Shown here in pieces: positions 513 through 19,699 of a DNA stretch of 43,558 nucleotides. Source of the DNA: Micromonosporaceae bacterium. GTDB taxonomy: Bacteria > Actinomycetota > Actinomycetes > Mycobacteriales > Micromonosporaceae. The first letter of the stretch is position 1. Every line of letters begins with the position of its first letter. The notes under the pieces were generated by a model. The model was not told where the DNA came from, searched no databases, and was given only the letters and a program-made list of their open reading frames with translations. Where the stretch lies: NCBI GenBank assembly GCA_050701815.1, contig JBOGDL010000443.1, positions 1 to 43,558 on the forward strand, read 5' to 3'. Made by a program: the position numbers and the translations under genes.

Positions 513-761
513 GACAAGCACTCTAGCCGTGCGTTCAGGCGCGGGCGTCAGCCCCAAGATCGCTGAGCCAGATCTGGTGGCCACCTCCTTGATTACCGCG
601 GTGGGTTTCCTCGCGTGTGCCAGCTGGTTTTGGCTCGCACACATCGGGTAGTAGCCCGTGACCCTGAGAAATCTCAGGGCTGACCCGCTGGTGCGGGAAC
701 TACCGGCAATCACTAGCGTTACAGGTAAGAAGAGTGACATTGGTCATTTGGGGGGACGGGG

Positions 762-1337
762 ATGAGAGCGCCGATCGACATGCGTGACGGTGGATCGGAC
801 GGCGAAGACACCGGGGAACTGGTCACGCTCGTCGGCCGGATCGACGCCCACTCCGCCAGTCAGCTGCGAGAACGGCTGCACCGGGCGGTGGATGGCGGCG
901 CCGGGATGCTGGTGCTTGACATGAGCAGTGTCGAGTTGATCGACGCCACCGGGCTTGGGGTGCTGGTGGGCGCGTCCCGGCGTGCGCTTCGGGCGGATCG
1001 GCAGGTGGTACTGCGGGGCGCCGCGTCCCGGCTGTGCCGGCTGTTGCGGGTGACCCGGCTTGACCGGCTGTTGCCGGCGGAACGCCCGTCTGATGGGGCC
1101 ACCTTCGGTTCGGGCCAGTGCTCGGAGTTGAGGGGAGCAGCACGCTCAGAGCCGGCGAGAGGCGAACGCTGGGGGGCGGGCAGGTCAAACGCCCCCGCCT
1201 CAGCGTCCGACCAGCTGTTGGCAGATCCGGGCGCTGAGTCAGAGATCGTGGAGCCGCAGCGGGCCGACTGGACGCTGCCGAAGGCTCGCCAGCCGGAGCG
1301 GGCCGCGTCCCCGGTCAGGCTGGGCTCACCCTCGTGA
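762..1337 (+). CDS. STAS-domain protein (anti-sigma-factor antagonist family) with a long disordered C-terminal tail
   Basis: ELVTLVGRIDAHSASQLRERLHRAV...MLVLDMSSVELIDATGLGVLVGA...VVLRGAASRLCRLLRVTRLDRLL matches the SpoIIAA/RsbV-type STAS pattern. Confidence 0.7.
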   Translation: MRAPIDMRDGGSDGEDTGELVTLVGRIDAHSASQLRERLHRAVDGGAGMLVLDMSSVELIDATGLGVLVGASRRALRADRQVVLRGAASRLCRLLRVTRLDRLLPAERPSDGATFGSGQCSELRGAARSEPARGERWGAGRSNAPASASDQLLADPGAESEIVEPQRADWTLPKARQPERAASPVRLGSPS

Positions 1338-1444
1338 GCCGTCTCACCGCGCGGTGACGCTACTCGCCAGTAAGCTCGGCTGAAGAGGTGGCCCGTGTGG
1401 CCTGAGCGCCACCTCCGCGAATCACCCCAGCCGGGAGGTGTGCG

Positions 1445-3604
1445 GTGCCTGCTTCTGAGCCCGATCCCGCAGCAGTGTCCGGATCCGGAGGGCGCAGCGC
1501 CGGGTCGGGCCAGCCCGTACGCCCGGAGCGTGACCGTCCGTGGGTGATGCGCACGTACGCGGGGCATTCCTCCCCAGCGGAGTCGAACGCGCTTTTCCGT
1601 CGCAACCTCGCCAAGGGGCAGACCGGGTTGTCAGTGGCTTTTGACCTGCCCACCCAGACCGGGTACGACCCGGATCACGAGCTCGCCCGAGGCGAGGTGG
1701 GGCGGGTCGGCGTCCCGATCGCGCACCTGGGGGACATGCGGGCGCTGTTCGAGGGCATTCCGCTGGCCGAGATGAACACCTCGATGACGATCAACGCCCC
1801 CGCGATGTGGCTGCTCGCGCTCTACGTGACCGTCGCCATGGAGCAGGATCAGGGCGGCGTGGCTGCGGCGCAGGCTCACGACGATCCGGAGCGAGCGCTC
1901 GCATCGCTCACCGGCACGATCCAGAACGACATCGTCAAGGAGTACCTGTCTCGGGGCACGTACATCTTCCCGCCGGGACCCTCGCTGCGACTGACGGCGG
2001 ACACCATCGCCTGGACCGTGCGGCACGCGCCCAAGTGGAACCCGGTCAACGTCTGCTCGTACCACCTGCAGGAGGCCGGCGCCACGCCCGTGCAGGAAGT
2101 CGCGTACGCGCTGTCCACCGCGATCGCGATCCTGGATTCAGTGCGTGACTCCGGCCAGGTGCCGCAGGACAAGATGGGCGAGGTGGTGGCTCGGATCTCG
2201 TTCTTCGTCAACGCGGGGGTGCGGTTCGTCGAGGAGCTGTGCAAGATGCGCGCCTTCGTCGAGCTGTGGGACACGATCACCCAGCAGCGGTACGGCGTCG
2301 CCAACCCCCGCCACCGGCGGCTCCGCTACGGGGTGCAGGTCAACTCGCTCGGTCTGACCGAGGCGCAGCCGGAGAACAACGTGCAGCGGATCGTGTTGGA
2401 GATGCTGGGCGTCACGCTCTCCAAGGACGCTCGGGCGCGGGCGATCCAGCTGCCGGCCTGGAATGAGGCGCTGGGCCTGCCCCGGCCGTGGGACCAGCAA
2501 TGGTCGTTGCGGATGCAGCAGGTGCTGGCGTACGAGACAGATCTGTTGGAACACGACGACCTGTTTCGAGGCAGCCACGTGGTGGAGGCCAAGACCCGAT
2601 CCATCGTGGAGGGCGCGTCCGCGGAGATCGAGCGGGTGTTCGAGATGGGCGGTGTGATCGCGGCCGTGGAGAGCGGTTACGTGAAGAGCCAGCTGGTCGC
2701 CTCGCTCGCGGAGCGGCGACGCCGGATGGAGAGCGGCGATGAGGTCGTCGTCGGCGTCAACCGCTACCTGGAGACCGAGCCGAGCCCGTTGACGGCCGAA
2801 GGCGCGGCCCCGATCCACACCGTCGACCCGGACGTGGAGCGTCGGGCCCGGGAGTCGGTTGCCGCGTGGCGGGCCAACCGGGACGACGCGGCGGCGCAGG
2901 CGGCCCTGCGCCGGCTGCGGGAAGACGCCAAGAACGGCGGCAACCTGATGGAGGCGAGCCTGACCTGCGCCCAAGCGGGCGTGACCACCGGAGAATGGGC
3001 GGACGCGTTACGCGAGACGCACGGCGAATACCGCGCCCCGACAGGCATCTCCGCGACGCCGGTCGCCGGTGACACCGGGCTGGCCGCGGTGCGAGAGCGC
3101 GTCATCGCCACCGGCAAGCAACTGGGTCGGCGGCTGCGCCTGCTGATCGGCAAGCCGGGCCTGGACGGCCACTCCAACGGAGCGGAGCAGATCGCGGTGC
3201 GTTCCCGGGACGCCGGGTTTGAGGTGATCTACCAGGGGATCCGGCTCACACCCGAGCAGATCGTGGCGGCCGCGGCCCAGGAGGATGTGGACCTGATCGG
3301 CCTGTCGGTGCTCTCCGGGGCGCACCTGTCCCTGTCCGCGCAGGTGCACGACGGGCTTCGTGCGGCGGGGCTGGGCGACGTGCCGCTGGTGGTGGGCGGG
3401 ATCATCCCCGCGGAAGACGCCGCTGCGTTGCGACAGCGGGGGGTGGCGCGGGTGTTCACACCCAAGGACTACGAGTTGACCGAGATCGTCAATGAAATGG
3501 TGACCGTGGTACGCGAGGCGCATGGCCTCGATGGTCCGGGTGACGTGGCGCCCGAAGCGGCGCGCCCATCGCGACCCGAAGCCGAGGCCGCCCGCGACCG
3601 GTGA
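1445..3604 (+). CDS. meaA: Ethylmalonyl-CoA mutase (MeaA/Ecm): fused acyl-CoA mutase catalytic domain and B12-binding domain
   Basis: RDRPWVMRTYAGHSSPAESNALFRRNLAKGQTGLSVAFDLPTQTGYDPDH..., GTIQNDIVKEYLSRGTYIFPPGPSLRL and the C-terminal GKPGLDGHSNGAEQIAVRSRDAGFEVIYQGIRLTPEQIV closely follow the Streptomyces MeaA sequence as I remember it. GTG start at 1445. Confidence 0.85.
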   Translation: MPASEPDPAAVSGSGGRSAGSGQPVRPERDRPWVMRTYAGHSSPAESNALFRRNLAKGQTGLSVAFDLPTQTGYDPDHELARGEVGRVGVPIAHLGDMRALFEGIPLAEMNTSMTINAPAMWLLALYVTVAMEQDQGGVAAAQAHDDPERALASLTGTIQNDIVKEYLSRGTYIFPPGPSLRLTADTIAWTVRHAPKWNPVNVCSYHLQEAGATPVQEVAYALSTAIAILDSVRDSGQVPQDKMGEVVARISFFVNAGVRFVEELCKMRAFVELWDTITQQRYGVANPRHRRLRYGVQVNSLGLTEAQPENNVQRIVLEMLGVTLSKDARARAIQLPAWNEALGLPRPWDQQWSLRMQQVLAYETDLLEHDDLFRGSHVVEAKTRSIVEGASAEIERVFEMGGVIAAVESGYVKSQLVASLAERRRRMESGDEVVVGVNRYLETEPSPLTAEGAAPIHTVDPDVERRARESVAAWRANRDDAAAQAALRRLREDAKNGGNLMEASLTCAQAGVTTGEWADALRETHGEYRAPTGISATPVAGDTGLAAVRERVIATGKQLGRRLRLLIGKPGLDGHSNGAEQIAVRSRDAGFEVIYQGIRLTPEQIVAAAAQEDVDLIGLSVLSGAHLSLSAQVHDGLRAAGLGDVPLVVGGIIPAEDAAALRQRGVARVFTPKDYELTEIVNEMVTVVREAHGLDGPGDVAPEAARPSRPEAEAARDR

Positions 3605-3666
3605 GCTTCGGGCGCCGGGAGCGGGGTTCGGCTCCGCCCAGGCTTGGCGCCTGACGGCGCCGGGCC

Positions 3667-6538: not shown

Positions 6539-7510
6539 ATGGTCGAGGAGCTGGTGCGGCGAGTCTGCGCATCATCGCCCCCGGATGGTCGCTCGTTGTT
6601 TCGCTTGATGCTGGCTGGCCGCAAGGACCCGACGGTGCTCACCCCGTACCTCGCCGAGCTGCTCGATGCCGGTGTGCTGTTCCCGTCGGAGCTGTACCGG
6701 GCCGCCGATGGCGAAGTGCAACGAGATCTCGTCGACCGGGTCGAGAAGGGCGTGCCCGCCGAGCAACTGAGCCGGCTGCTGCGGGCGATCGCGCAGACCG
6801 GTGGCGCCATCGCCGAATCGGCATTCCGGCGATGGCGGGTGCAGCCGCCCGAGAACGCGGACGGTCTCGGCTCGCCGGTGGGCGAGTACACCACTGAGGG
6901 CGGGTGGACGCTCGCGGCTGACGGTCGCCGCCGGCTGTGCTCCTCCCGGTCGTACTCCTTGGTTCCAGCCCGGCCGAAGCACAGCCCGGTGGCGGGAGGG
7001 CCTGCCGCGGCGAACTGCCCCCAGTGCGGCAACCGAATGTGGTCGGTGCTGGCCGTCGACTCCGAAGACCCACGGGTGGACGCCGCGTTGGCGCACACCG
7101 GGTGGCAGGGGCGGCTGCGCATCGTCACCTGCTACCGCTGCGCCTGCTACGGGACGGTCTATTGCGAGGTGACCCCTGAAGGCGCCGTGCACTGGTCTCC
7201 CCACACCAAGGCGCCGGACTACGTCGACGACGGGGACTGGGCGATGCCCTCGGGGTGGCTGACCATCGGGGCTGCGCGGAGCACCCCGTACATCGCTGAT
7301 GTGTTGGCGCCGGGAGGCTCGACGCTGGGCGGGTTTCCCGACTGGGGGCTGCAGGGCGCGGATTATCCCCATTGCCCGGTCTGTGGAGTGGCGATGCCGT
7401 TCCTGGCGATGCTGCACGGCGGCGACTTCGAGCAATGGGGCGAAGGCGTGCACTACATCTTCCTGGACGCCCGCTGCGGCCTGGCCGCTGTCAACTATCA
7501 ACCGAGCTGA
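6539..7510 (+). CDS. Hypothetical Cys-rich protein with zinc-ribbon-like CxxC pairs and a C-terminus reminiscent of DUF1963/YwqG
   Basis: High GC3 in this frame and a balanced composition. Motifs: CPQCGNRMW...TCYRCACYG and GGFPDWGLQGADYPHCPVCGVAMPFLAMLHGGDF...GVHYIFLDARCG. The antisense ORFs are Arg/Pro/Gly-rich. Confidence 0.55.
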   Translation: MVEELVRRVCASSPPDGRSLFRLMLAGRKDPTVLTPYLAELLDAGVLFPSELYRAADGEVQRDLVDRVEKGVPAEQLSRLLRAIAQTGGAIAESAFRRWRVQPPENADGLGSPVGEYTTEGGWTLAADGRRRLCSSRSYSLVPARPKHSPVAGGPAAANCPQCGNRMWSVLAVDSEDPRVDAALAHTGWQGRLRIVTCYRCACYGTVYCEVTPEGAVHWSPHTKAPDYVDDGDWAMPSGWLTIGAARSTPYIADVLAPGGSTLGGFPDWGLQGADYPHCPVCGVAMPFLAMLHGGDFEQWGEGVHYIFLDARCGLAAVNYQPS

Positions 7511-10058: not shown

Positions 10059-10970
10059 ATGCGAAGACGATCTGGGGAAGCACGAATCGTGAGTGGTACG
10101 AGCGCTGATCAGCCTGGTGACGGCACGCCTCAAGCGGGAGTTGGCGAGCCCCAGCCTGGTGACGGCACGCCTGACCAGGGGACCCCGATCCGGGCGAATT
10201 CCATCCTGCCGGCGCGGCGGCAAGACATCGAGCTCCACACCGCTGACGGGCTGACCCTGGTGGGGGAGTTGGCGCTGCCGGCAGACCGGGACCCTGTCGC
10301 CACCCTGGTCTGCCTGCATCCGCTGCCCACTCACGGCGGCATGATGGACAGCCACGTGCTGCGTAAGGCCGCCTGGCGACTGCCGGCCCTCGCTGGGCTC
10401 GCGGTGTTGCGGTTCAACACCCGAGGCACGTCCAGTCAACGGGGGGTCAGCGAGGGCACGTTCGATAGCGGTCGAGGGGAGCGGAACGACGTCGTAGCCG
10501 CGATCGAGTACGCCGAGTTCAGCGACCTGCCAAGGATCTGGTTGCTGGGTTGGTCGTTCGGCACAGACCTGGCCCTGATGCACGGATGCGATCCTGTCGT
10601 GGCTGGCGCGATCCTGCTGTCGCCGCCGTTGCGCTCGGCGCAGCCTGAGCACTTGGCCAACTGGGCTGATTCGGGCAAGCCCGTGACGGCGCTGGTGCCC
10701 GAGTTCGATGACTATTTGCGTCCCGCCGAGGCGGCGGATCGGCTCGGCGCGATACCGCAGGCTGAAGTGGTGGGGGTCCCCGGCGCCAAGCACCTGTGGG
10801 TGGGCGATGCGGAAACCGTCCTCGACGAGGTCGTGAAGCGGGTGGCGCCTGAGTCGAGCCCCTTGCCCGAGGTGTGGCGTGGCCCGATCGAGCGGGGGGA
10901 CGCGAGCGCGTACGCGGATCGCACAGTGGCTGCCTTCGCCGACACCCCGCTGCCGCGGGACGCGACTTGA
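10059..10970 (+). CDS. Alpha/beta hydrolase with a disordered N-terminus. The start is uncertain, and the GTG at 10089 is also possible.
   Basis: LHTADGLTLVGELALP...LVCLHPLPTHGGMMDSHVLRKAAWRLP...LRFNTRGTS...LLGWSFGTDLAL...GAKHLW has an alpha/beta-hydrolase fold pattern with the nucleophile in GWSFG. The N-terminus holds a 21-bp sequence repeated at 42-bp spacing (10110-10130 and 10152-10172, QPGDGTP x2). Confidence 0.75.
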   Translation: MRRRSGEARIVSGTSADQPGDGTPQAGVGEPQPGDGTPDQGTPIRANSILPARRQDIELHTADGLTLVGELALPADRDPVATLVCLHPLPTHGGMMDSHVLRKAAWRLPALAGLAVLRFNTRGTSSQRGVSEGTFDSGRGERNDVVAAIEYAEFSDLPRIWLLGWSFGTDLALMHGCDPVVAGAILLSPPLRSAQPEHLANWADSGKPVTALVPEFDDYLRPAEAADRLGAIPQAEVVGVPGAKHLWVGDAETVLDEVVKRVAPESSPLPEVWRGPIERGDASAYADRTVAAFADTPLPRDAT

Positions 10971-11126
10971 GCCCGCGCGGGGCATGAGCAACTGGCCCCG
11001 CTCGTAGCGCTCGATCGTGATGCTGCGTGGTGGAGGCGTCTGACCTGCCAAGAGTGGTGGGATCTGGCGAAATGGTTCGGTGTTTTGCCAGGCTTGGGCC
11101 GTTCCGGTCAGCTACATTGAACCTCT

Positions 11127-11144
11127 TGTAATCGGATGATTACA
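11127..11144. promoter_or_regulatory. Perfect 7-4-7 palindrome TGTAATCggatGATTACA, overlapping a TTGAAC(-35)-17 bp-TTACAT promoter-like arrangement upstream of the long peptide gene
   Basis: Read directly. TTGAAC is at 11117-11122. The local stretch is visibly AT-richer than its surroundings and lies about 140 bp upstream of the GTG at 11282. Confidence 0.4.
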
Positions 11145-11281
11145 TGCTGCGACGTTTGCGGGCAGGTCCCTCCGGCCAGACATGGTTTTACCCACCGGGC
11201 ACATCATCGCCGATGTGCCTGGCTGCACGTCTGCGACTTCTGGGAAGCCCGTCGAATGTCGTGGGACTCAGAGGAGTAGAT

Positions 11282-11857
11282 GTGGGAGTTTTCATCAGTT
11301 ACCAGGCCCTGGACCGGGTTGCCGGTCAGATGCTGCCTGAGCGTCTTCTGATGTCGACAGTGCTGCCACCGATATCTGGGACCGGCGAGGCCGCCGGGGA
11401 TGCTCCGGGCGACATGGGGGTCGCTTCGACTAGCACGGTGGACGCTCCGGCCGACACGGCGACCGCTCCAACCGGCACAGCGACCGCCCCGACAAGCACG
11501 GCGGACGCTTCAGCCGACCCCGCCAATGCTCCGGTCGACACCGCGAGTGCTCCGGCGAGCACGGCAGACGCCGCGTCCGGTGCTCCGGCGAGCAACGGCG
11601 GTGCTGGGTCCGGCGCGGCTGCCGCTCCGGCGAACGACGCCCCGGCAAACACAGGCGGCACCCCGGCAGCGGACGGAACGTATAGCGCTGCCAACAACGG
11701 GGACGCCTCGGCGGGCAACCAGGGCAGCACATCGGTTGCCTACGCGTGCCAGTACACCGCGAACCCCGGCCCTCCTGCCCTGCTGTCATTCCTGGGCCTC
11801 GCAGGCTCACCGGGGTACAGCATGAGCTGTGTTCCGGCTGCAGTGGTGACTCGCTGA
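11282..11857 (+). CDS. Peptide-family member P0 (191 aa): family leader, then a ~110-aa Ala/Thr/Pro/Asp-rich linker, then the family two-Cys core
   Basis: GAGGAG at 11271-11276 lies 5 nt before the GTG at 11282. Leader: VGVFISYQALDRVAGQMLPERLLMSTV. Core: SVAYACQYTANPGPPALLSFLGLAGSPGYSMSCVPAAVV. A strong terminator follows immediately. Confidence 0.7.
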   Translation: MGVFISYQALDRVAGQMLPERLLMSTVLPPISGTGEAAGDAPGDMGVASTSTVDAPADTATAPTGTATAPTSTADASADPANAPVDTASAPASTADAASGAPASNGGAGSGAAAAPANDAPANTGGTPAADGTYSAANNGDASAGNQGSTSVAYACQYTANPGPPALLSFLGLAGSPGYSMSCVPAAVVTR

Positions 11858-11872
11858 CCACTTGACCACTTG

Positions 11873-11930
11873 ACCGTGGTCGCTTCGCTGCTCGTACGGA
11901 ATGGGTGAGCGACGAGGCGACCACGGTTTT
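11873..11930 (+). terminator. Intrinsic terminator after P0
   Basis: A 21-bp stem (accgtggtcgcttcgctgctc / gagcgacgaggcgaccacggt, 1 mismatch and 2 G-U pairs) with a 13-nt loop, followed by a TTTT run. It is preceded by tgaccact x2.9 (11855-11877). Confidence 0.7.
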
Positions 11931-12164
11931 GGTGTGCGCCCGAAAACTGGGCTGTGCTCTTGTCGCTGGGCTGCCCGGCGCCAAGCGCGAAACTGGCGCC
12001 CAGCGCGAATCAGCGGCGCTTAGGCCGTGTCCTGCCGATCAGCTGAGCTTGCCACCGCCTCAGTCAAGCCACCCCTGCGAGGCCTTCCTAGCGTCACCCG
12101 CCGGTGACCTGCTAGGCCTGCGCCCAGAGTCTCCCCGCTATCCCCGCAGGAGCGCCCTCCGGGG

Positions 12165-12198
12165 CTCAGGTGGCCCAATAAGCCTCAGGTGGCCCAAT
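12165..12198. repeat. 19-bp-period direct repeat (ctcaggtggcccaat x2) in a ~466-bp apparently non-coding gap
   Basis: Read directly. Nothing in 11858-12323 has protein-like ORFs. Confidence 0.8.
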
Positions 12199-12323
12199 GA
12201 GCTGGGGGGCGATGAGTCAGAGTGCGTCTGCCTTGGGGCAGCGCTGCAGGGACAACTGGCTGGGACACGGTCGCGATCCAGGGACAGCGGCGCCAAGAGG
12301 CCTGCCACGGTGGTTGTGGCAGA

Positions 12324-13859
12324 TCACCTCGCGTGACGGGCGGCGTACTGCCAATACCGGGCGCGGACCATCCGAAACCCGCCACGGAGTGCCAACCAGG
12401 CCAGGAGTATCAAGCCCGCCACCGGAATCAGCAAGATCAGGATCTGCAGCGCAGATGTGATCACACCAAGGATCGGGTAGCCGGAACCGCCGGTGGCTTG
12501 GATGGCGAGGACCTGGATTGAGATCCATATGTTCTGGAGGATCACCGGCACCTGGGTGGAGAACATCGCCAGCTGGATCGCGATACCCGGGATCACCACG
12601 ATCACCCAGGTAGAGACCACGATCTGGGGCCACCGCTTGAGCAGGCTCAGCCGCTGGTCAGCGGGACGTCGTAGGAAGGTCCGCTTCAGGATCGGTCCGA
12701 TGTAGCGGAACAGGTCTGGGACGCCGACCAGGTCGGCCACGATGTAGTAGCCGTCAAATCGCAAGGTCGGCAGTAGCTGCTGCATGATCTCGAGGTTCAC
12801 GGCCAGGATGCACACGAGGAAGGGTGGGAACTCCGTCCAGGTGTAGAGCATGCCCAGGATGACAACGACGATCGCGTTGAAGTAGACGCCACCCAGGTCG
12901 GCTCGTAGCCGGCCGGCCCGGTTCAGTCGGTACGAGTTCGTGATGTCGGTGTAGAAGGCAGGCCAGACCAGATAGATACCGAATCCCATGGGCCCTGGCG
13001 CCACGCCTCCATAGCGACACGCGGTAGCGTGCCCGAACTCATGGAACGCGGCGGACATCATGGCCATCAGCAGCACCAGCAGCACGCTGGAAGGGGAGAT
13101 CAAGGTCAGCTGAAGCGCGGCGGCGATGTCCTGTGAGCTGAGCAGCCACACCTCGCTGGCGAGCGCAGTGGTGAGGACCAGAAAGAGCGCGAACGGGTGG
13201 AAGAGCCACAGGAACATCCCAGCGATGGCCCAGGTCGCCTTCTCCGGGATCACCGCGACCTTGAACTTCAGCGCGAGGAACGGGCTTGGCTTGATGAGGT
13301 TCGGGGCAGTGCCATCGCTGAAGGTGGTGACCCCGAGTGGGGCCAACTTCTTGTCCAGAAGGTACGAGATGTGCTCCGGAGCCAGTTCGATGTCGGTGTC
13401 GCGGCTGACCCCGGTGGCGACCGCGGACAACAGCGCCTCACGTTCCTGGGGGCCGCCTGTGGTCTCATCCCGGTCGACCAGGTGTCGTACCACTGAGTAG
13501 AGCAACAGGGGCAGTCGCACCAGCTGTCCGTCGCCACGGCTCACCAGGTGAGGTGGTTCCCGGTAGCCGGACCCCTGGAACTCGCCCACCAGCTCAGTGC
13601 CCTCTGTCAGCGCAGGCAGGGGTTGCGCGACTGGCTCGGGAGTTGCTTCCTGGATGGCGGCGGCGGCCGTTGACTCGTGATCGGGATTCGAGCCCGTCTC
13701 GCCGTTGGCCGGCCGGGGTCGGGGTCGGGGTCGGGGTCTCGGTCTGGGTCGCGGTCGCGGTTTGATAGCGCTCTCCCAGGGGTCGGGTTCCGGCTGGTCG
13801 CCATGGTGCGGTTGCCCTTTGTCGCCGCGTGGAGGAAAGCGGAGGGCGCTACCTGTCAC
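12324..13859 (-). CDS. M50-family (site-2-protease-like) polytopic membrane zinc metalloprotease with a soluble N-terminal domain and a (Pro-Arg)8 tract
   Basis: HEFGHATACRYGG is an HExxH motif inside a hydrophobic helix. Further evidence: AFYTDITNSYRLNRAGRLRADLGGVYFNAIVV, LRFDGYYIVADLVGVPDLF and at least six hydrophobic segments. The N-terminal part LTEGTELVGEFQGSGYREPPHLVSRGDGQLVRLPLLLYSVV resembles proteins annotated 'putative peptide zinc metalloprotease'. The GTG start at 13859 is the only start before the membrane domain. Confidence 0.8.
   Translation of the reverse strand: MTGSALRFPPRGDKGQPHHGDQPEPDPWESAIKPRPRPRPRPRPRPRPRPANGETGSNPDHESTAAAAIQEATPEPVAQPLPALTEGTELVGEFQGSGYREPPHLVSRGDGQLVRLPLLLYSVVRHLVDRDETTGGPQEREALLSAVATGVSRDTDIELAPEHISYLLDKKLAPLGVTTFSDGTAPNLIKPSPFLALKFKVAVIPEKATWAIAGMFLWLFHPFALFLVLTTALASEVWLLSSQDIAAALQLTLISPSSVLLVLLMAMMSAAFHEFGHATACRYGGVAPGPMGFGIYLVWPAFYTDITNSYRLNRAGRLRADLGGVYFNAIVVVILGMLYTWTEFPPFLVCILAVNLEIMQQLLPTLRFDGYYIVADLVGVPDLFRYIGPILKRTFLRRPADQRLSLLKRWPQIVVSTWVIVVIPGIAIQLAMFSTQVPVILQNIWISIQVLAIQATGGSGYPILGVITSALQILILLIPVAGLILLAWLALRGGFRMVRARYWQYAARHAR
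13710..13760 (-). repeat. Imperfect hexanucleotide repeat encoding K(PR)8PA in the M50 N-terminus
   Basis: ccgcga ccgcga cccaga ccgaga ccccga x3 ccccgg, read on the minus strand. Confidence 0.9.
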
Positions 13860-14070
13860 GCGCGAGCGGGATTAGCTTGCAGGCAAGAATCCCTTTTGAG
13901 ATTGAAAAATCATCTTTTGTCATCCAATCGAGGGAACCAACGGGCAGGTCGATCAATTACGGTCTGTAGCGCGTGATATACGTTAGGTGCTCTTCCCGCC
14001 AGACAAGGCGGAGAGGCCGTCTGGAGCTCGCGGTGAGATCCAGGTGTCACGACAAGATGGAGGAACACCA
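13860..14070. promoter_or_regulatory. Divergent control region between the M50 gene and the peptide array. It contains the most AT-rich stretch seen in the window.
   Basis: ttttgagattgaaaaatcatcttttgtcatccaatcgag, an imperfect hairpin gggattagcttgc/gcaagaatccc (13868-13893), and a conserved 5'-leader block at 14021-14066 that recurs at 15135-15177. Confidence 0.5.
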
Positions 14071-14337
14071 GTGCAGACTCTTATCAGCTACGCGGAACTG
14101 GACGAGGTTGCGGGAGAGCTGCTTCCCGAGCGTGCCGTGATGTCCACAATGGTTACTCCCATGATGGGCGGTAGCGCCGAGTTCGGCGGTGCTGCGAATG
14201 GCGGCCCGACCGTGGTGGCGTACGCGTGCTCCGCTGGCTCTTCGCCGGCCACCAGCGCCAACGGCGCCCTGGGCATCCTCGCGGCCACGCCGTCGGTTGG
14301 CCCGGCCTGTGTGCCTGGCGGCATCATCACCGGCTAG
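14071..14337 (+). CDS. Peptide-family member P1 (88 aa)
   Basis: GGAGGA at 14059-14064 lies 6 nt before the GTG at 14071. Sequence: VQTLISYAELDEVAGELLPERAVMSTMVTPMMGGSAEFGGAANGGPTVVAYACSAGSSPATSANGALGILAATPSVGPACVPGGIITG. Confidence 0.75.
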   Translation: MQTLISYAELDEVAGELLPERAVMSTMVTPMMGGSAEFGGAANGGPTVVAYACSAGSSPATSANGALGILAATPSVGPACVPGGIITG

Positions 14338-14365
14338 TTAGCAAGCCATTCAGGCCTTTGGCCTT

Positions 14366-14398
14366 ACGTGTGGGGAGAGCCCCGCTCTCCCCACACGT
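14366..14398 (+). terminator. Perfect 14-bp stem-loop (acgtgtggggagag-ccccg-ctctccccacacgt) after P1, with no T-tract
   Basis: Read directly. A second hairpin, cgcctgagtcac/gtgagtcaggcg, follows at 14406-14432. Confidence 0.55.
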
Positions 14399-14458
14399 GA
14401 TAACTCGCCTGAGTCACTCGGTGAGTCAGGCGTAAACGACAAACATGGAGGGCAAGTC

Positions 14459-14692
14459 ATGACTTTCGCAGAACTCGACAAGGTTGCTGGGGAGCTGCTT
14501 CCCGAGCGCGCTGTGATGTCCACCGTCGTGCCGCCGATGTTCGGCGGCCAGGCTGAGAACGGTGTCGTGGTGGCGTACGCGTGCTCCGCTGGCTCGTCGC
14601 CGGCCACCAGCGCCAACAGCCTTTTGGGCATCCTCGCGGCCACGCCGTCTGTCGGCCCGGCCTGCGTGCCCGGCGCCATCATCGCACACTGA
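14459..14692 (+). CDS. Peptide-family member P2 (77 aa)
   Basis: GGAGGG lies upstream of the ATG at 14459. Sequence: MTFAELDKVAGELLPERAVMSTVVPPMFGGQAENGVVVAYACSAGSSPATSANSLLGILAATPSVGPACVPGAIIAH. The core is near-identical to P1 at the DNA level. Confidence 0.75.
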   Translation: MTFAELDKVAGELLPERAVMSTVVPPMFGGQAENGVVVAYACSAGSSPATSANSLLGILAATPSVGPACVPGAIIAH

Positions 14693-14727
14693 TTTCTGTG
14701 TGATCACTTGGCGTCACGCCTGACGTT

Positions 14728-14755
14728 CGGGGAGGGCGGGCAACCGTCCTCCCCG
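14728..14755 (+). terminator. Stem-loop cggggagggcgg-gcaa-ccgtcctccccg after P2
   Basis: 12-bp stem with 1 mismatch and no T-tract. Confidence 0.45.
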
Positions 14756-14806
14756 GATGGAAAGTGATTTCAGGAGAAGATCAAGTGCAAATGGGGGGAA
14801 CAGAGA

Positions 14807-15052
14807 ATGCAGAAGACCATCAGCTATGCGGAGCTGGACCTGACCACCGGCGAGCTGCTCCCTGAGCGTGCTGTGATGTCGACCGTCATGCCGTCGATGT
14901 TCGGCTACGCCGAGGGTGGCAACGTCGTGGTGGCGTTCGCGTGCTCGGCGGGCTCGTCGCCGGCCACCAACACCAACAGCCTCCTGGGCATCATTTCGGC
15001 CACGCCGTCTGTCGGCCCGGCCTGTGTGCCTGGTGGCATTGTCGCCGGCTAG
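14807..15052 (+). CDS. Peptide-family member P3 (81 aa)
   Basis: A G-rich SD (ggggggaa) lies upstream. Sequence: MQKTISYAELDLTTGELLPERAVMSTVMPSMFGYAEGGNVVVAFACSAGSSPATNTNSLLGIISATPSVGPACVPGGIVAG. Confidence 0.75.
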   Translation: MQKTISYAELDLTTGELLPERAVMSTVMPSMFGYAEGGNVVVAFACSAGSSPATNTNSLLGIISATPSVGPACVPGGIVAG

Positions 15053-15090
15053 TTCGGTGCGTTTCTAGTCAGGCATTTCGCCTGACCATG

Positions 15091-15121
15091 GGGAGGACGG
15101 CAGCATGCTGTCCTCCCTTTT
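15091..15121 (+). terminator. Intrinsic terminator after P3 (gggaggac..gtcctccc stem followed by TTTT)
   Basis: It is preceded by a small hairpin gtcaggc-atttc-gcctgac at 15068-15086. Confidence 0.6.
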
Positions 15122-15134
15122 GCGTGGCAAGGGT

Positions 15135-15177
15135 CTGGACTCGCAGGGAGATCCAGATGTCACAACAGGATGAGGAA
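15135..15177 (+). other. Orphan copy of the P1 5'-leader block (ctggactcgcagggagatccagatgtcacaacaggatgaggaa) with no family ORF after it. It is probably a relic of a deleted array member.
   Basis: It aligns by eye with 14021-14066 (ctggagctcgcggtgagatccaggtgtcacgacaagatggaggaa). The P3-P4 spacer is 284 bp, against 114-131 bp for the other spacers. Confidence 0.45.
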
Positions 15178-15336
15178 GTCCCGGGGAGGGTGGCAGCCTT
15201 CCGCCACCCGCACGCAGGAAAGGGGGTCCCGTAAAGGCGGTACGAGCCAGACGGAAGGGCGCCAACTCGCTGTCCTCACATGGGGGAGGGCCTGAGGGGC
15301 CACAGCACCATGCAAGAAGGGATTGGAAACAAAGGA

Positions 15337-15606
15337 ATGCAGGCTCTTATCAGCTATCCGGAGCTGGACCTGGTCGCGGGGGAGATGCTTCCTGAGCGTG
15401 CCGTTATGTCGACCGTGTTGACGCCGATGTTCGGCAGCCAGGCCGAAGCCGAGTCAACGGTGGTGGCGTACGCCTGCTCATCCGGCTCATCGCCGGCCAC
15501 AGCGATTGGCTTCCTGTTTTTCGACGTCGTCAATCCGTTGAAAGATCTTTCGGCGGCGCCATCGTCAGGTCCGGGATGCGCGCCAGCTGGCATTGTCACC
15601 GACTAG
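15337..15606 (+). CDS. Peptide-family member P4 (89 aa), divergent core
   Basis: The ATG at 15337 was chosen by alignment with P3 (MQALISY vs MQKTISY); the track ORF starts at 15280. Sequence: MQALISYPELDLVAGEMLPERAVMSTVLTPMFGSQAEAESTVVAYACSSGSSPATAIGFLFFDVVNPLKDLSAAPSSGPGCAPAGIVTD. Confidence 0.7.
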   Translation: MQALISYPELDLVAGEMLPERAVMSTVLTPMFGSQAEAESTVVAYACSSGSSPATAIGFLFFDVVNPLKDLSAAPSSGPGCAPAGIVTD

Positions 15607-15641
15607 TTCGGTGTTGTTCTCGTCAGGCACACGCCTGATGA

Positions 15642-15680
15642 CGGGGAGGACGGCTACATGCCGACCTCCCGTTTGCGTTT
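15642..15680 (+). terminator. Stem-loop cggggaggacggc/gccgacctcccg followed by tttgcgtttt, after P4
   Basis: It is preceded by the small hairpin tcaggc-acac-gcctga at 15623-15638. Confidence 0.55.
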
Positions 15681-15737
15681 TGGCAAGTGGCTGGGCTCAC
15701 GGGGAGCCCGGCATCATGAGGAAACGGGGGAAGTCTC

Positions 15738-15977
15738 ATGGAAACACCTGTCAGTTTCGGGGGTTTGGAGCAGGTCTTCGGGGAGTTGCTCCCTGAACGG
15801 GCTGTCATGTCCACCCTGGCCCCGATGGGGGTTAACGGCAACGCCGAAGTGGGCCCGCTGTTCGCATTCGCGTGCTCCAGCGGCTCAGCCCCAACTGCCA
15901 ATGACTTCAGCCTGCTCGGAGACACGGAATCCGGGTCAGTTGGTCCGGCGTGTGCGCCGGGCGCCATCGTGATCTAG
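15738..15977 (+). CDS. Peptide-family member P5 (79 aa), the most divergent of the short members
   Basis: gggggaag lies upstream of the ATG. Sequence: METPVSFGGLEQVFGELLPERAVMSTLAPMGVNGNAEVGPLFAFACSSGSAPTANDFSLLGDTESGSVGPACAPGAIVI. Confidence 0.7.
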   Translation: METPVSFGGLEQVFGELLPERAVMSTLAPMGVNGNAEVGPLFAFACSSGSAPTANDFSLLGDTESGSVGPACAPGAIVI

Positions 15978-16005
15978 CTGAGGTCGGCGGTCAGCTCGTG
16001 CTGGC

Positions 16006-16036
16006 GGGTGGGGAGGGCGAGCCGCCCTTCCCACCC
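16006..16036 (+). terminator. Stem-loop gggtggggagggcg-agc-cgcccttcccaccc after P5
   Basis: 14-bp stem with one G-U pair. It marks the end of the array. Confidence 0.5.
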
Positions 16037-16077
16037 GGTCTCAAGTTTCCGCAGCCACCGAATTCCAGGAGAATGGG

Positions 16078-16854
16078 TTGATGCTTGCCTGCACCCGTAC
16101 CGGCGCCGGTGTGCCACTGATGCTGCTGCACGCGTTTCCCCTGTCGTCCGCGATGTGGGACGCGCAGCGTGGTGGCTTGAGCCGGGAGTGCGAAGTGATC
16201 ACCCCGGACCAGCGTGGCTTCGGCGAATCAGCACAGCTCCTTGACGGGGCGGAGCCGAGTCTGTATGTGCTGGTCGATGACCTTGCCGAGCTGCTTGACC
16301 AGCTTGAGTTGGACCGGGTGGTGCTGGGCGGGCTCTCCATGGGCGGGTACGTCGCGATGGCATTCCTGCGACGACACCCGGATCGAGTGCGAGGGCTCGT
16401 GCTGGCCAACACCAAGGCCAGCCGCGACACACCTGAGGCGGCTGACAACCGGCGCCGGATCGCCAGCGCGGTCGAGACCGCGGGCAGCAGCGAGCCGCTG
16501 CTCGACACGGTGGCCCCGAATCTGCTCGGTACGCGTTCCCGCGCCGATCGTCCGGAGTTGGCCAGGGCCGTGGAGCGTATGACGCTCGCAGCCCCGTACC
16601 AGGCGGTGGCCTGGGCGCAGCGGGCGATGGCGGCGCGAGACGACTCGTTTGACGTGCTGGCGGGCCTTCAAATCCCGGTGCAGGTGATCGCGGGCGAGGA
16701 CGATGCGCTCATGGATGCCTCCGAAGCGCAGGCGATGGCATCCGCCGTGCCGCATGGGGAGTTGACCACTCTCTCGAACGTCGGCCATCTGAGCGCGATG
16801 GAAGCGCCGGCCCACTTCAACGCCGCCGTCAGCGACCTTGTGAAGCGGGCCTGA
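16078..16854 (+). CDS. Alpha/beta hydrolase (enol-lactonase/haloperoxidase-like)
   Basis: PLMLLHAFPLSSAMWDAQ...ITPDQRGFGES...LGGLSMGGYVAMAFLRRHPDRVRGLVLANT...NVGHLSAMEAP. The start is TTG at 16078 or ATG at 16081, with AGGAGA at 16066-16071. Confidence 0.8.
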   Translation: MMLACTRTGAGVPLMLLHAFPLSSAMWDAQRGGLSRECEVITPDQRGFGESAQLLDGAEPSLYVLVDDLAELLDQLELDRVVLGGLSMGGYVAMAFLRRHPDRVRGLVLANTKASRDTPEAADNRRRIASAVETAGSSEPLLDTVAPNLLGTRSRADRPELARAVERMTLAAPYQAVAWAQRAMAARDDSFDVLAGLQIPVQVIAGEDDALMDASEAQAMASAVPHGELTTLSNVGHLSAMEAPAHFNAAVSDLVKRA

Positions 16855-16893: not shown

Positions 16894-18300
16894 TCATTTC
16901 TGCGCTGCGGGCTTGCCTGTGGTTGAGGTCTGACGCTTGTCAGAGTCGTGTTCCGCAGACTTCGACTGCTTGGGCGGCGCCCCGTTGCGATGAGGATTCG
17001 ATGCCTTGCCGTTCAGCTCCTGGTCGGGTTGTGCCGACTCGTCCTCCCCGGACGGGTCATCGCCAGAACCGGGGTCATCAGCGCCGCTTGGTGACGATTC
17101 GGCAGTTGGCTCATCTGAGCCTGACTGTCCCTCTGCAGACTCCTCGAAGTCTTCGTTGGCGAGCAACGCCGCGGAGCTGCCAGCCAAGCGGGCGACCGCC
17201 TCCTTCAAGTGATTCAGGTTTCGGCGGATCTGGCGGCGCTGGTCTTCCAGCTCGTCAACCTTGCGGCGAGCATCCTCGACGAGCTCGTCGGCTGTGGCGC
17301 GGGCAGTCGCCACCAGCTTGTCGGCCTCCTCCTGCGCCGTTTCCACAGTGCGTTTGGCTCGCTCCTCCGCCTGCGCCGGAATCTCGGCCACCTGCTGTTT
17401 GATCTGCGCCAAGACCTGGCTGGCGTGTGACTCGGCGTCGTCGCGGACCTTGGCGGCGTCCTGCTTCGCTGTCGCACGCAGGTGATGCAGCTCCGCGGAC
17501 GTTTCCTCCCGCAACTGCGTGATCTCGTGGTTGGCGGCGGTACGCTTCTCGGTCATCTCCTGCTCAGTGGCCTCGCGGAGGGTGTTGGCGTGATTTTCGG
17601 CGTCAGAGCGAAGCTGCTGCGCGTACGCGGTCGCCTCATCACGGACCTTGCGCGCTTCTTCCTGCGCGCTTAAGTGAAGCTGCTCCGCGTGCGCCTTGGC
17701 CTCTGAGCGCAGCTTCTTGGCGTGCTGCTCAGCCACATCGGCAGCCTGCTGCGCCTCCTGCCGAAGCCGCTGCACGACCGTGGTCTTCTCCGTCACGTAC
17801 GAGTCGACCTTGGCCCGCCGGTCGGCGCTGGCTCGCTCTTCCTCGGCGCGACGGCTGGCGAGCGTTGTCTCGAAATCCTTGCGCGCCTGCTCGGCCTCGG
17901 CTTTAGCTTGGCTGAGGGTCTTCCCGGCTTCCTCGCGCTGCTGAGTGATCTCACTCTGGGCGCGCTGCTTGAGGTACTCGGCTTCCTCTTCCGCAAGCGA
18001 GAGGATCTGCTCCACTCGGGCGCCCAGGTGCCGATAGGTCGCGCGGTCGCCGGTGACCGCGCGGCGCCGCAGGTCGGTGGTCTCGCTCTGAAGCTGCTGT
18101 AGCTGCATGGCGAGGGATTGGGCCTGGCTGTAGACCTGATCGCGCTCGGTGAGCAGCGCGGTGTTCTCAGCGACCAGCTGCTCAACGTATCGATCTACCT
18201 GCTTGCGGTCATAGCCACGGAGGGACAGCTCGAAGCCCGGATCGGCGTCGCCGGTGGTCCCGAGGGCGTTGAACAGGGTGTGGTCACCGCTGTGCGACAT
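16894..18300 (-). CDS. DivIVA-domain coiled-coil protein (Scy/FilP-like; homologues are often annotated 'cellulose-binding protein')
   Basis: The N-terminal FELSLRGYDRKQVDRYVEQL is the DivIVA-domain motif. It is followed by about 300 aa of heptad-like A/E/R/K/Q-rich repeats and an acidic Ser/Pro/Gly tail. Confidence 0.8.
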   Translation of the reverse strand: MSHSGDHTLFNALGTTGDADPGFELSLRGYDRKQVDRYVEQLVAENTALLTERDQVYSQAQSLAMQLQQLQSETTDLRRRAVTGDRATYRHLGARVEQILSLAEEEAEYLKQRAQSEITQQREEAGKTLSQAKAEAEQARKDFETTLASRRAEEERASADRRAKVDSYVTEKTTVVQRLRQEAQQAADVAEQHAKKLRSEAKAHAEQLHLSAQEEARKVRDEATAYAQQLRSDAENHANTLREATEQEMTEKRTAANHEITQLREETSAELHHLRATAKQDAAKVRDDAESHASQVLAQIKQQVAEIPAQAEERAKRTVETAQEEADKLVATARATADELVEDARRKVDELEDQRRQIRRNLNHLKEAVARLAGSSAALLANEDFEESAEGQSGSDEPTAESSPSGADDPGSGDDPSGEDESAQPDQELNGKASNPHRNGAPPKQSKSAEHDSDKRQTSTTGKPAAQK

Positions 18301-18439: not shown

Positions 18440-19699
18440 CTAGGCGCCGATCTTGTTGTCGGAATCCTTCTTGCCATCGTCCTTCTTCTTGCTGGTGTCC
18501 TCTGCGGCGGCAATCGCGGGAACCGCACCCGGCATGATGCCGCCGAGCATCTCACGCAGCTGGCCCAGCTGCGCCGTGATCGCATCGCGCTGGCGACCGA
18601 GATCCTCGACTTCGCGGCGTGCGGTCTGCGTGGTGTCCTCGGCTTCGGAACGCGCCGAGGAGAGCAGTCGCTGCGATTCGGCCCGAGCATCCGCCACGGT
18701 CTTGTCGGCGTGAGCCTTGGCTTTCTCAATGGTGTCGTTGGCGTGCTGCTCAGCCTCACTGCGCCGGGACTCGGCACGCTGCTCGATCTCTTTGGCGCGG
18801 TCATCCGCGGAGCGGGCGCGCTGCTCGGCCTCGGTGACCAGCTTCTGAGTCGCCTGCACTGCGGAAGCGTGACGCTCGGACTCTTCCCGCTCGGCGGTCT
18901 CGCGCCGCTCAGCGAGCTCGAGCGCGAGGGCCTGCAGCTCCTTGTCGCGCTTCTCCTTGGCGTCGTTGTAGAGCTTCGCCGCCTCGGCCCGCTTCTCCTC
19001 AGCTTCCCGCATCGCCTTGGCGCGCAGCTGGGTGATCTCGCGCTCAGCGGTGGCCCGGAGCGTCGCCACCTCACGCTCGGCGGTCGCCTTGGTCTCGGCG
19101 ACCTCGTGGGCGGTGGCGCTACGCAGCTGCTTGGTCTCGCGGTCGGCGTCACCGCGCAGTGTCTCCGCCTCACGCCGGGCGGCCACCCGGGTTTCCGCCG
19201 CCTCGCGCTCAACGGCGGTGCGCAGGCTTCCAGCCTCCCGCTCGGCAGCAGCCTTCAGCGCCGCGGCCTCAGCCCGCGCCTTGTCGGCGATCTCTCGCGC
19301 CTCGAGTCGGGCGGCGGAAAGGATGCCTTCGGCTTCTCGTTTCGCCTCTGCCCGGTGCTCATTGGCCTGCTCCTCGGCCAGGCGCAGAATGTGCTCAACC
19401 TTGGTGCCGAGGCCGGAAAGAGTGGGGCGGCTGTTCTCTTCAAGCTGCTTCGCCTGATCGCCGAGCTTCTGCTCCAGCCCGGTGGAGCGTTGCTCAGCCT
19501 GGCGCAGCCGGCGCTGGGCGTCGGTCATCCGACGCTCGGCCTCGCCGCGCTCAGTCTCCTTCTGCGCGATCAGCGCGTTCAGACGCTCCACGTGGGAGTC
19601 GACCTGCGCGCGGTCGTAGCCGCGGAGGACAACGGTGAAGTCGGGTTGTTGGTTGGCTGCTTCAAAGAATGACAGGGAGGGCTGCTGGGGCATTGGCAC
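18440..19699 (-). CDS. DivIVA-domain coiled-coil protein, a paralogue of the downstream gene
   Basis: FTVVLRGYDRAQVDSHVERL is followed by long AERE/ARxEA-type repeats. The start is GTG at 19699 or ATG at 19693. Confidence 0.8.
   Translation of the reverse strand: MPMPQQPSLSFFEAANQQPDFTVVLRGYDRAQVDSHVERLNALIAQKETERGEAERRMTDAQRRLRQAEQRSTGLEQKLGDQAKQLEENSRPTLSGLGTKVEHILRLAEEQANEHRAEAKREAEGILSAARLEAREIADKARAEAAALKAAAEREAGSLRTAVEREAAETRVAARREAETLRGDADRETKQLRSATAHEVAETKATAEREVATLRATAEREITQLRAKAMREAEEKRAEAAKLYNDAKEKRDKELQALALELAERRETAEREESERHASAVQATQKLVTEAEQRARSADDRAKEIEQRAESRRSEAEQHANDTIEKAKAHADKTVADARAESQRLLSSARSEAEDTTQTARREVEDLGRQRDAITAQLGQLREMLGGIMPGAVPAIAAAEDTSKKKDDGKKDSDNKIGA

Follow-up and report, generated by a model that had tools for sequence, protein, structure and literature searches.

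A candidate protease-only precursor-peptide cassette with paralogous two-cysteine peptides in a Micromonosporaceae bacterium

Precursor genes and metalloprotease at the locus

Contig JBOGDL010000443.1 of a Micromonosporaceae bacterium (GenBank assembly GCA_050701815.1; 43,558 nucleotides, herein referred to as the window) encodes six small paralogous proteins, P0–P5, around a single intramembrane metalloprotease gene on the opposite strand. A first-pass annotation, made from the letters of the DNA alone, had read the six forward-strand open reading frames (ORFs) as possible precursor peptides served by that protease. All six are present in the ORF list where it had placed them, and their alignment bears out a common architecture of leader, spacer and core with exactly two cysteines. 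The precursor genes, the protease gene and the parts of the protease discussed below are:

11282–11857, forward strand: P0, 191-aa precursor (ORF list and alignment)
14071–14337, forward strand: P1, 88-aa precursor with a GTG start, identical to called protein P0001
14459–14692, forward strand: P2, 77-aa precursor, third-position G+C (GC3) 0.83
14807–15052, forward strand: P3, 81-aa precursor, GC3 0.86, called protein P0002
15337–15606, forward strand: P4, 89-aa precursor with a 7-aa core insertion and a Cys–Cys spacing of 33
15738–15977, forward strand: P5, 79-aa precursor, the most divergent copy, with an anionic core, called protein P0004
12324–13859, reverse strand: 511-aa intramembrane HExxH metalloprotease (ORF list, NCBIfam, AlphaFold2 (AF2) model, hydropathy)
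13245–13616, reverse strand: soluble N-domain of the protease (residues 82–205), proposed to bind the leader in the manner of a RiPP recognition element (RRE; RiPP, a peptide made on the ribosome and modified post-translationally), from conservation, AF2 and collinearity with daptide proteases
13029–13043, reverse strand: codons of HEFGH (H273, E274, H277), the catalytic zinc-binding motif, which lies where a transmembrane (TM) helix ends and is invariant in 45 homologues
12750–12758, reverse strand: codons of F368-D369-G370, the end of the N..LLPxLRFDG motif, invariant in 45 homologues

The leaders of P0–P5 are acidic and end in ...G(E/Q)(L/M)LPER(A/L)(V/L)MST. They are followed by a spacer of 13–20 aa in P1–P5 and of 123 aa in P0, and then by a core of 40–49 aa with a Cys–Cys spacing of 25–33 residues (26 in four of the copies). 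The cores are uncharged to anionic, with a grand average of hydropathy (GRAVY) of 0.55–1.1, and the precursors end in R, G, H, G, D and I, respectively. P1–P5 represent a divergent five-fold tandem expansion ("YACS...GPAC(V/A)P"). P0 has a core of the "YACQ" type, which in other genomes is usually the second peptide of a pair. P0 consists of the leader MGVFISYQALDRVAGQMLPERLLMST, an acidic Ala/Pro/Thr/Asp-rich spacer and the two-Cys core ..VAYACQY..SMSCVPAAVVTR, to which a peptide of Saccharopolyspora flava (locus L003), VAYACQYQQDPGPPALLASLGLAPTTPGHTMTCVPAAIASEH, is a near-match. The spacer of P0 (11360–11728, forward strand) has a net charge of -12 and is far longer than those of P1–P5; in other members of the family the spacers are Gly/His/Asn-rich (e.g., GGHGHGGHGGHGGHDHGG) and resemble metal-binding sequences. 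The six copies in the window exceed those at any of the approximately 100 loci that we sampled, and the G+C content of the cassette region (0.63–0.66) is below that of its flanks (0.69–0.72).

The P0–P5 ORFs are coding and are under purifying selection. Across the 12 codons of GELLPERAVMST, P2 and P5 differ at six positions, all of them synonymous and none nonsynonymous, as the first-pass annotation had observed. The ratio of nonsynonymous to synonymous substitution rates (dN/dS; Nei–Gojobori, all ten P1–P5 pairs) is well under 1, at 0.26–0.44 for the whole peptide; it is lowest in the leader (0.05–0.40), reaches 0.27–0.60 in the core, and is erratic and about neutral in the spacer. High-GC DNA yields many spurious ORFs, and mirror ORFs do lie on the reverse strand here; the probability that P0–P5 are chance or antisense artefacts is nonetheless negligible, given that changes are biased toward synonymous ones in the forward frame, that homologues in many genera keep both frame and architecture, and that a reversed-sequence control returned 0 matches.

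Two expression signals reported for each copy were also found: a purine-rich Shine-Dalgarno-like sequence lies 5–9 nt 5' of every start, and every stop is followed by a stem-loop (-35 to -44 kcal/mol, z -3.6 to -6.1) that none of 200 shuffles folds equally well:

11872–11928, forward strand: hairpin after the P0 stop, -39.6 kcal/mol, z -6.1
14365–14399, forward strand: hairpin after P1, GGGGAGAGC...GCUCUCCCC, -38.4 kcal/mol, z -6.1
14724–14759, forward strand: hairpin after P2, -41.8 kcal/mol, z -5.5
15090–15118, forward strand: hairpin after P3, followed by UUUUG, -37 kcal/mol, z -5.2
15644–15670, forward strand: hairpin after P4, -35.3 kcal/mol, z -3.6
15979–16043, forward strand: hairpin after P5, at the end of the array, -44.3 kcal/mol, z -4.4

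The five hairpins of P1–P5 have common arms, GGGGAGG (Shine-Dalgarno-like) on the 5' side and CCUCCCC (anti-Shine-Dalgarno-like) on the 3' side, and belong to the duplicated unit. Rfam gave no match within 10.5–16.5 kb, and a sigma-70 promoter scan, which is uninformative for actinomycetes, found no promoter.

The protease carries H273-E-F-G-H277 at the end of a hydrophobic segment (residues 253–276) and a second motif, N355..L362-L-P364-T-L-R-F-D369-G370, in which E357, Q361, L362, P364, R367, F368, D369 and G370 are invariant in the 45 homologues; the FDG closes this second motif, which is of the site-2-protease type, and is predicted to supply the third metal ligand. Many residues of the N-domain (approximately 82–205) are likewise invariant, and hydropathy places approximately six to seven TM helices after residue 205. 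In the AF2 model (predicted local distance difference test (pLDDT) 75, predicted template-modeling score (pTM) 0.62), a disordered N-terminus is followed by the N-domain and then by a helical membrane domain. The N-domain forms three short strands and then three helices (residues 89–172) directly before TM1, and this segment is collinear with the RRE segment of daptide proteases. A (Pro-Arg)8-9 repeat (13708–13760, reverse strand; residues 34–50) falls in the model-disordered part and is unconserved among homologues.

The best NCBIfam match of the protease is NF041824 (daptide_HExxH; E 4.6e-22, 78.7 bits against a cut-off of 300, residues 185–383 only), and the second is NF058609, the YydH/LiaK epipeptide maturation metalloprotease (E 1.8e-11, 44.2 bits against a cut-off of 225). 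Because both scores lie under their cut-offs, the protease is best regarded as a distant relative of two RiPP-associated families and a member of neither. The "M50" label given to it earlier stands insofar as both catalytic motifs (HExxH and the N..P..DG type) are present, but not by the Pfam model PF02163, whose cut-off is missed; our assignment to the M50 type instead follows from the two motifs together with the NCBIfam matches to RiPP-type HExxH intramembrane proteases. There are approximately 4000 homologues at E < 1e-5, the closest 50–64 % identical, in Streptomyces, Actinomadura, Spirillospora, Saccharopolyspora, Amycolatopsis and many metagenomes, and all are labelled "hypothetical" or "putative peptide zinc metalloprotease." A Foldseek comparison of the protease model with the Protein Data Bank (PDB) gave nothing significant (best E 0.16, to transient receptor potential channels and transporters), and the sole match of the protease and N-domain profiles to PDB sequences, a designed helical repeat protein, was judged spurious.

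The matches to NF041824 and NF058609, together with the presence of several precursors with a daptide-like acidic leader, could be taken to mean that the window holds a daptide or epipeptide cluster only in part. We consider this very improbable: the scores are far under the curated cut-offs, no precursor among P0–P5 ends in the invariant daptide Thr, and neither the window nor the related loci described below contain DapB/C/D/M, a radical S-adenosylmethionine (SAM) epimerase or an ATP-binding cassette (ABC) transporter.

Linkage of leader and protease in genomes and metagenomes

Linkage of the peptides to the protease recurs in other genomes and in metagenomes. A scan of 185,579 species genomes (GTDB) for DNA encoding GELLPERAV recovered 12 loci in Streptomyces, Actinomadura, Saccharopolyspora and Actinocatenispora, with a protease homologue within a few kb at 10; of the remaining two, L008 is a 4-kb contig that ends just past the peptides, and L001 is considered further below. 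A six-frame search with a hidden Markov model (HMM) found one to four family peptides per genome locus, mostly directly upstream of the protease and on the same strand. Approached from the protease side, all four arbitrarily picked homologues (Streptomyces, Actinomadura, Amycolatopsis and Spirillospora; finished or large assemblies) are directly preceded, on the same strand, by two family peptides. None accompanies a fifth homologue, a protease–MauE fusion on a 5.9-kb contig.

The same arrangement is seen in metagenomes, where we examined the best 80 loci (37–57 % identity) of 541 relatives found with the protease profile. Peptides were detected in 38/80 loci with a strict leader-only HMM and in 65/80 with a relaxed leader pattern, and among loci with at least 800 bp upstream of the protease, 55/62 (89 %) contain leader-bearing ORFs. 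These loci yielded 180 leader peptides, compared with 0 in a reversed-translation control, at one to five copies per locus; 164 of them are encoded upstream of the protease and in its orientation. All-against-all clustering of the neighbouring ORFs at 13 genome and 80 metagenomic loci revealed no third recurrent gene family. The leader-bearing genes and the protease are thus tightly and specifically linked, and nothing else is conserved. The absence of any tailoring enzyme, first remarked for the window, extends over approximately 100 loci. A partial exception to the two-family rule is a lipoprotein-like gene downstream of the protease at approximately 10 loci, all of the Cys-free class described below; it encodes a signal peptide ending in ..LAGCG and a conserved domain (L029 6643–8361 and approximately nine other metagenomic loci; L019 11489–12265).

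An exhaustive profile search over 1.84 billion representative proteins placed the peptides in a family of 115 clusters at 50 % identity, 59 of them at E < 1e-10, and every member that carries a source name is a "hypothetical protein." The family leader consensus is (I/L)(S/T)xxEL(D/N)xLxGE(L/V)LPERAV(L/M)S. Among 44 diverse two-Cys members, only the Pro of LPER and the two cysteines are invariant, and the Ser/Thr positions of the cores are unconserved. Most genomes encode a pair of peptides, the upstream one of the form "(S/N)ACQ...TC(T/A)P" with a long Gly/His/Asn-rich spacer and the downstream one of the form "YACQ...TCVPA"; because the "SACQ" and "YACQ" types are encoded together in most genomes, their products may act as a pair. 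In five members (P0133, P0134 (L020 4792–5415), P0145, P0174 and P0189), two tandem two-Cys cores follow one leader, and the L020 locus of P0134 has the same divergent layout of protease and peptides as the window.

The leader and protease also occur with unrelated cores. Of the 180 metagenomic cores, 135 are Cys-free ("LINANVAAPVNAAVAANVLSD..."), 11 are of the two-Cys type to which the window peptides belong, and 34 are others, namely Gly-rich (GGRGGNGG...LNLFGDQ), GNGNGN-rich or short and Pro-rich. That the leader and protease persist while cores are swapped indicates that they form the conserved unit, with the core as cargo. The Cys-free sister class is far more abundant in soil metagenomes and comprises arrays of two to five peptides with the same leader and the core LINANVAAPVNAAVAANVLSDNSxAYANAEQxxxIxQSN, upstream of proteases approximately 40 % identical to that of the window. 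Gene callers often begin these genes at the internal Met of ...LPERAAMSL, so that the leader is lost from the annotation. The first gene of such arrays is often a distinct short Pro-rich peptide with the common leader (e.g., ...GEPLPDREVMSVIRGVRPLPEPVFPID...). The loci concerned are:

L019 7323–8652; L027, L031, L033, L041, L044, L046, L047, L050, L052, L060: Cys-free sister-class loci
L074, L078, L082, L083, L087, L088, L097, L100 and others: further Cys-free sister-class loci
L031 1176, L033 1942, L050 1403, L060 3855, L074 3951, L088 3945: examples of the Pro-rich first gene

Several individual loci have additional features. The L013 protease homologue (295–3655) is C-terminally fused to MauE/DoxX (Pfam E 5e-29) and preceded by a DsbA-like thioredoxin gene, a VKOR gene (L014 10334–10975) follows another protease homologue, and some loci neighbour kinases, phosphatases or two-component systems. 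L001 (9938–10237) is an orphan family peptide with a shortened core in an Actinocatenispora metagenome-assembled genome. One Streptomyces sub-clade has its two peptide genes 1.6–3.8 kb apart, in the following intervals:

L005 5284–7035; L006 10216–12437; L008 1903–3759; L010 10222–14011; L011 10213–11795: Streptomyces inter-peptide intervals

No hidden enzyme was found in these intervals, only a block of approximately 500 bp that is conserved equally in every reading frame, which indicates conservation at the DNA level with no clear ORF.

Within the window itself, a Pfam scan of all large, GC3-supported ORFs agrees with the first-pass annotation that tailoring and export genes are absent: no lanthipeptide synthetase, YcaO, radical-SAM, ATP-grasp, C39-ABC or HlyD gene was found. 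The remaining genes with Pfam matches point only to primary metabolism (methylmalonyl-CoA mutase subunits, MeaB, NucS, PhoX, 3-hydroxyacyl-CoA dehydrogenase, a ccr-like reductase, thiolase, a DivIVA-domain protein, MarR, EamA, a thioredoxin-TPR protein, NAD-glutamate dehydrogenase and the GlgB/TreS-Mak/GlgE glucan genes). Genes of the alpha/beta-hydrolase type flank the cassette on both sides, of which only 16078–16854 has a Pfam match. MeaB shares 78–81 % identity with proteins from Micromonosporaceae metagenome-assembled genomes, which assigns the window to an uncultured member of the same family's kin. The 468-aa DivIVA-domain protein (16894–18300, reverse strand) is a coiled-coil protein with apolipoprotein-like repeats, and its gene accounts for the strong AT skew (-0.37) at 17–18 kb. 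Four ORFs lack a Pfam match (18440–19699, reverse; 10059–10970, forward; 6539–7510, forward; 28304–28918, reverse); 18440–19699, 6539–7510 and 28304–28918 have a good third-position GC signal, whereas 10059–10970 failed the filter and encodes a GWSFG nucleophile-elbow motif resembling that of alpha/beta hydrolases.

Proposed maturation route and its alternatives

At these loci, a processing enzyme lies beside several paralogous precursors in which the leader is conserved and the core varies, the combination that defines a leader-and-core system. As far as sequence analysis goes, the loci support the original interpretation of precursor peptides with a dedicated protease, and the nearest families of that protease are RiPP leader peptidases. 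We therefore favour, as the probable reading, a self-contained two-component cassette of ribosomal precursor peptides and one dedicated intramembrane zinc metalloprotease; most likely, the protease cuts the shared leader off short two-Cys peptides with no other modifying enzyme involved.

We hypothesize that the conserved cytoplasmic N-domain of the protease binds the precursor leader and so brings the peptide to the HExxH/FDG active site within the membrane, where the leader, probably together with the spacer, would be cut off. The candidate role of the N-domain in leader binding is suggested by its position and by its modelled strand-strand-strand-helix-helix-helix order, which match those of the RRE fused to daptide proteases (PMC10036551). 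The spacer probably leaves with the leader, because it is unconstrained and because the repeat unit of the two-core precursors begins just before the first Cys. The core would then be freed at or across the membrane, with the protease perhaps itself serving as the exit route, by analogy with EpeP/YydH. The two cysteines would subsequently form, probably, an intramolecular disulfide that staples the peptide as a hairpin, with no further enzyme needed. The disulfide is suggested by the invariance of the cysteines, by the weak AF2 hairpin of the peptide (low confidence, pLDDT 60), in which the strands bearing the two cysteines are paired, and by the two gene links to thiol oxidation, which are anecdotal because they are absent from other loci. 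Since the cores are uncharged to anionic, hydrophobic and without a TM-length stretch, surface-active or signalling peptides fit better as products than a cationic bacteriocin or pore-former.

Several observations weigh against this route. The cores of P0–P5 contain no hydrophobic stretch of TM length (maximum Kyte-Doolittle hydropathy over 19 residues, KD(19), 0.8–1.6), which is atypical for substrates of site-2 proteases; the protease scores only 9.3 bits against Pfam Peptidase_M50 (PF02163; cut-off 27.2), which is not significant; and isolated N-domains returned only stray winged-helix matches (E 0.04 and 0.22) from Pfam (n=12) and the PDB. The L001 peptide locus, without a protease from -10 kb to +2.5 kb, is a true exception to the linkage, and no peptide could be detected at 7/62 informative metagenomic protease loci. 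The loci share no conserved gene for an exporter or for immunity, and export is thus an assumption of the scheme. The VKOR, DsbA and MauE links are confined to 2 of the approximately 100 loci, and the contig with the MauE fusion is without a peptide.

An alternative is that enzymes from elsewhere in the genome act on the Cys and Ser/Thr residues of the peptides (for example, a lanthipeptide synthetase that forms thioether rings), which would make these genuine RiPP precursors, with the adjacent protease only removing the leader. Lanthipeptide leaders carry class-specific motifs, such as FxLD in class I and ILELQ in class III, and these are absent from the leaders of the family. The cores are Ser/Thr-rich with two invariant cysteines, an S-x-x-S-x-x-x-C spacing can be seen by eye in some members (e.g., ..SPSSSMTC..), and unlinked leader peptidases and tailoring enzymes are known for class III lanthipeptides (PMC10885120). 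However, no tailoring enzyme recurs at the approximately 100 loci from many genera, the core Ser/Thr positions are unconserved while the cysteines are conserved, and Cys-free, Ser-poor cores are served by the same leader and protease, all of which make modification by a remote enzyme unlikely.

It is also quite unlikely, in our view, that the small proteins are regulatory substrates or partners of the protease in a switch of the regulated-intramembrane-proteolysis kind, which would release or destroy a small cytoplasmic or membrane-associated factor. Site-2 proteases such as RseP and SpoIVFB classically act in signalling, and both the lack of an exporter or immunity gene and the kinases, phosphatases and two-component systems beside some loci would be in keeping with such a role. 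However, secreted-peptide precursors are typified by tandem copies, by a fixed leader with hypervariable cores, by core swapping and by two cores in one precursor, no sigma/anti-sigma gene or other regulator is consistently linked, and the protease is nearest to RiPP leader peptidases. We thus retain the interpretation of the window as a precursor-peptide cassette. The comparative data point to a real, uncharacterised, protease-only system that is well supported as a genomic entity.

Significance and relation to known systems

The system appears to have escaped description. Neither Pfam (2025) nor NCBIfam (June 2026) has a family that matches the six peptides, diverse members, isolated cores or the Cys-free variant, and literature searches (the motif string; M50, precursor and Streptomyces; daptides; RRE surveys) found no paper describing these peptides or the cassette. 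Together with the uninformative source names, this gives no indication that the family is an already characterised class.

Tentatively, and as a possibility that goes beyond the window, we suggest that the cassette founds a large, so far undescribed actinobacterial ribosomal-peptide superfamily. One RRE-like/site-2-type protease would here recognise the precursor, remove its leader and let the product out independently of Sec, whatever core follows an ELxxLxGExLPER leader (two-Cys hairpins, NANVAAPVN repeats, Gly-rich cores and others), a minimal "protease-only" mode of maturation and secretion in which the two-Cys peptides would form a new disulfide-stapled hydrophobic family, usually paired. 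Should the proposed maturation route hold, a family of peptides that are secreted or freed from the membrane, and that present genome-mining tools do not recognise, is encoded in many soil metagenomes and in actinomycete genomes by the thousand (among them Streptomyces, Actinomadura, Amycolatopsis, Saccharopolyspora and Micromonosporaceae). Its clusters lack a tailoring enzyme, its peptides have no Pfam or NCBIfam model, and its genes are often uncalled. A two-gene system is small enough for transfer to a heterologous host, and its leader, used as a tag, together with the matching protease may serve to release peptides of any sequence. The cassette would also allow the question to be put whether proteases of the site-2 type act as peptide exporters too, which has been proposed yet remains unsettled for EpeP. 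What the products do, be it surface activity during aerial growth, signalling or antagonism, could matter for actinomycete development.

Like the site-2 proteases (PF02163: RseP, SpoIVFB, MjS2P), the window protease has HExxH in one TM helix and, farther downstream in a different helix, a motif of the N..P..DG type, the consensus of this second motif being of the type N-x-x-P-x-x-x-x-D-G. It differs in having neither PDZ nor CBS domains, in showing no detectable sequence or fold match to solved structures of the family, and in that its putative substrates are small, soluble-looking peptides encoded next door.

The leaders also bear some similarity to those of double-glycine bacteriocins, whose consensus is LSxxELxxIxGG. 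The resemblance proposed in the first-pass annotation is present at the sequence level, as (I/L)SxxELxx(V/L)xG, but the motif ends in GE rather than GG and no C39 transporter is encoded, so that it amounts to a likeness and not to membership. Class IIb and double-glycine bacteriocins have in common with the cassette an N-terminal leader, two different peptides often encoded side by side and products that are unmodified or merely disulfide-bonded, as those of the cassette would be. In contrast, the cassette leader runs approximately 10 conserved residues past GE (LLPERAVLS), neutral or anionic cores take the place of cationic ones, and the processing enzyme would be a metalloprotease; neither a C39-peptidase ABC transporter nor an accessory protein nor an immunity gene is present. 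Lanthipeptides of classes I–V were considered and rejected, as no LanB/LanC, LanM, LanKC/LanL or class V synthetase is encoded in the window or at related loci.

The epipeptide system of Bacillus subtilis (YydFGHIJ/EpeXEPAB) likewise pairs a small precursor with an M50-type intramembrane metalloprotease, YydH/EpeP, which has been proposed to cut its peptide and also to export it (PMC10885120). The cassette lacks the radical-SAM epimerase (YydG/EpeE) and the ABC transporter of that system, its leader and core are unrelated, and it belongs to a different phylum; with no radical-SAM gene in the window or at related loci and a protease score of 44.2 bits against 225, it was not assigned to the epipeptides.

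Daptide clusters (MpaA1-3/MpaP, DapA/DapP; Ren et al. 2023, PMC10036551) resemble the cassette in their membrane site-2-type HExxH protease with a soluble N-terminal domain before the TM region, and in encoding several paralogous precursors with hydrophobic cores behind an acidic conserved leader containing E-L-...-P, also in Actinomycetota. They average 2.3 precursors per cluster, their proteases carry an N-terminally fused RRE, and a C-terminal Thr, which is invariant, is the site of the class-defining modification (PMC10036551). The cassette peptides have no C-terminal Thr and instead contain two invariant cysteines in their cores, and their leader reads ELxxLxGExLPER rather than the daptide ELExMEAP. 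No oxidative decarboxylase (DapB/C), pyridoxal phosphate-dependent aminotransferase, methyltransferase or ABC transporter accompanies them in the window or at the 13 genome and 80 metagenomic loci, where the protease is the only conserved enzyme. Daptide membership was thus rejected on the C-terminal Thr, on the DapBCDM/ABC genes and on a score of 78.7 bits against 300. Daptides and epipeptides are nevertheless the closest known systems in mechanism. A leader-guided precursor matured by a site-2-type protease is in itself a known kind of system, and what is new in the cassette is its protease-only organisation, its common leader with interchangeable cores and its two-Cys core family.

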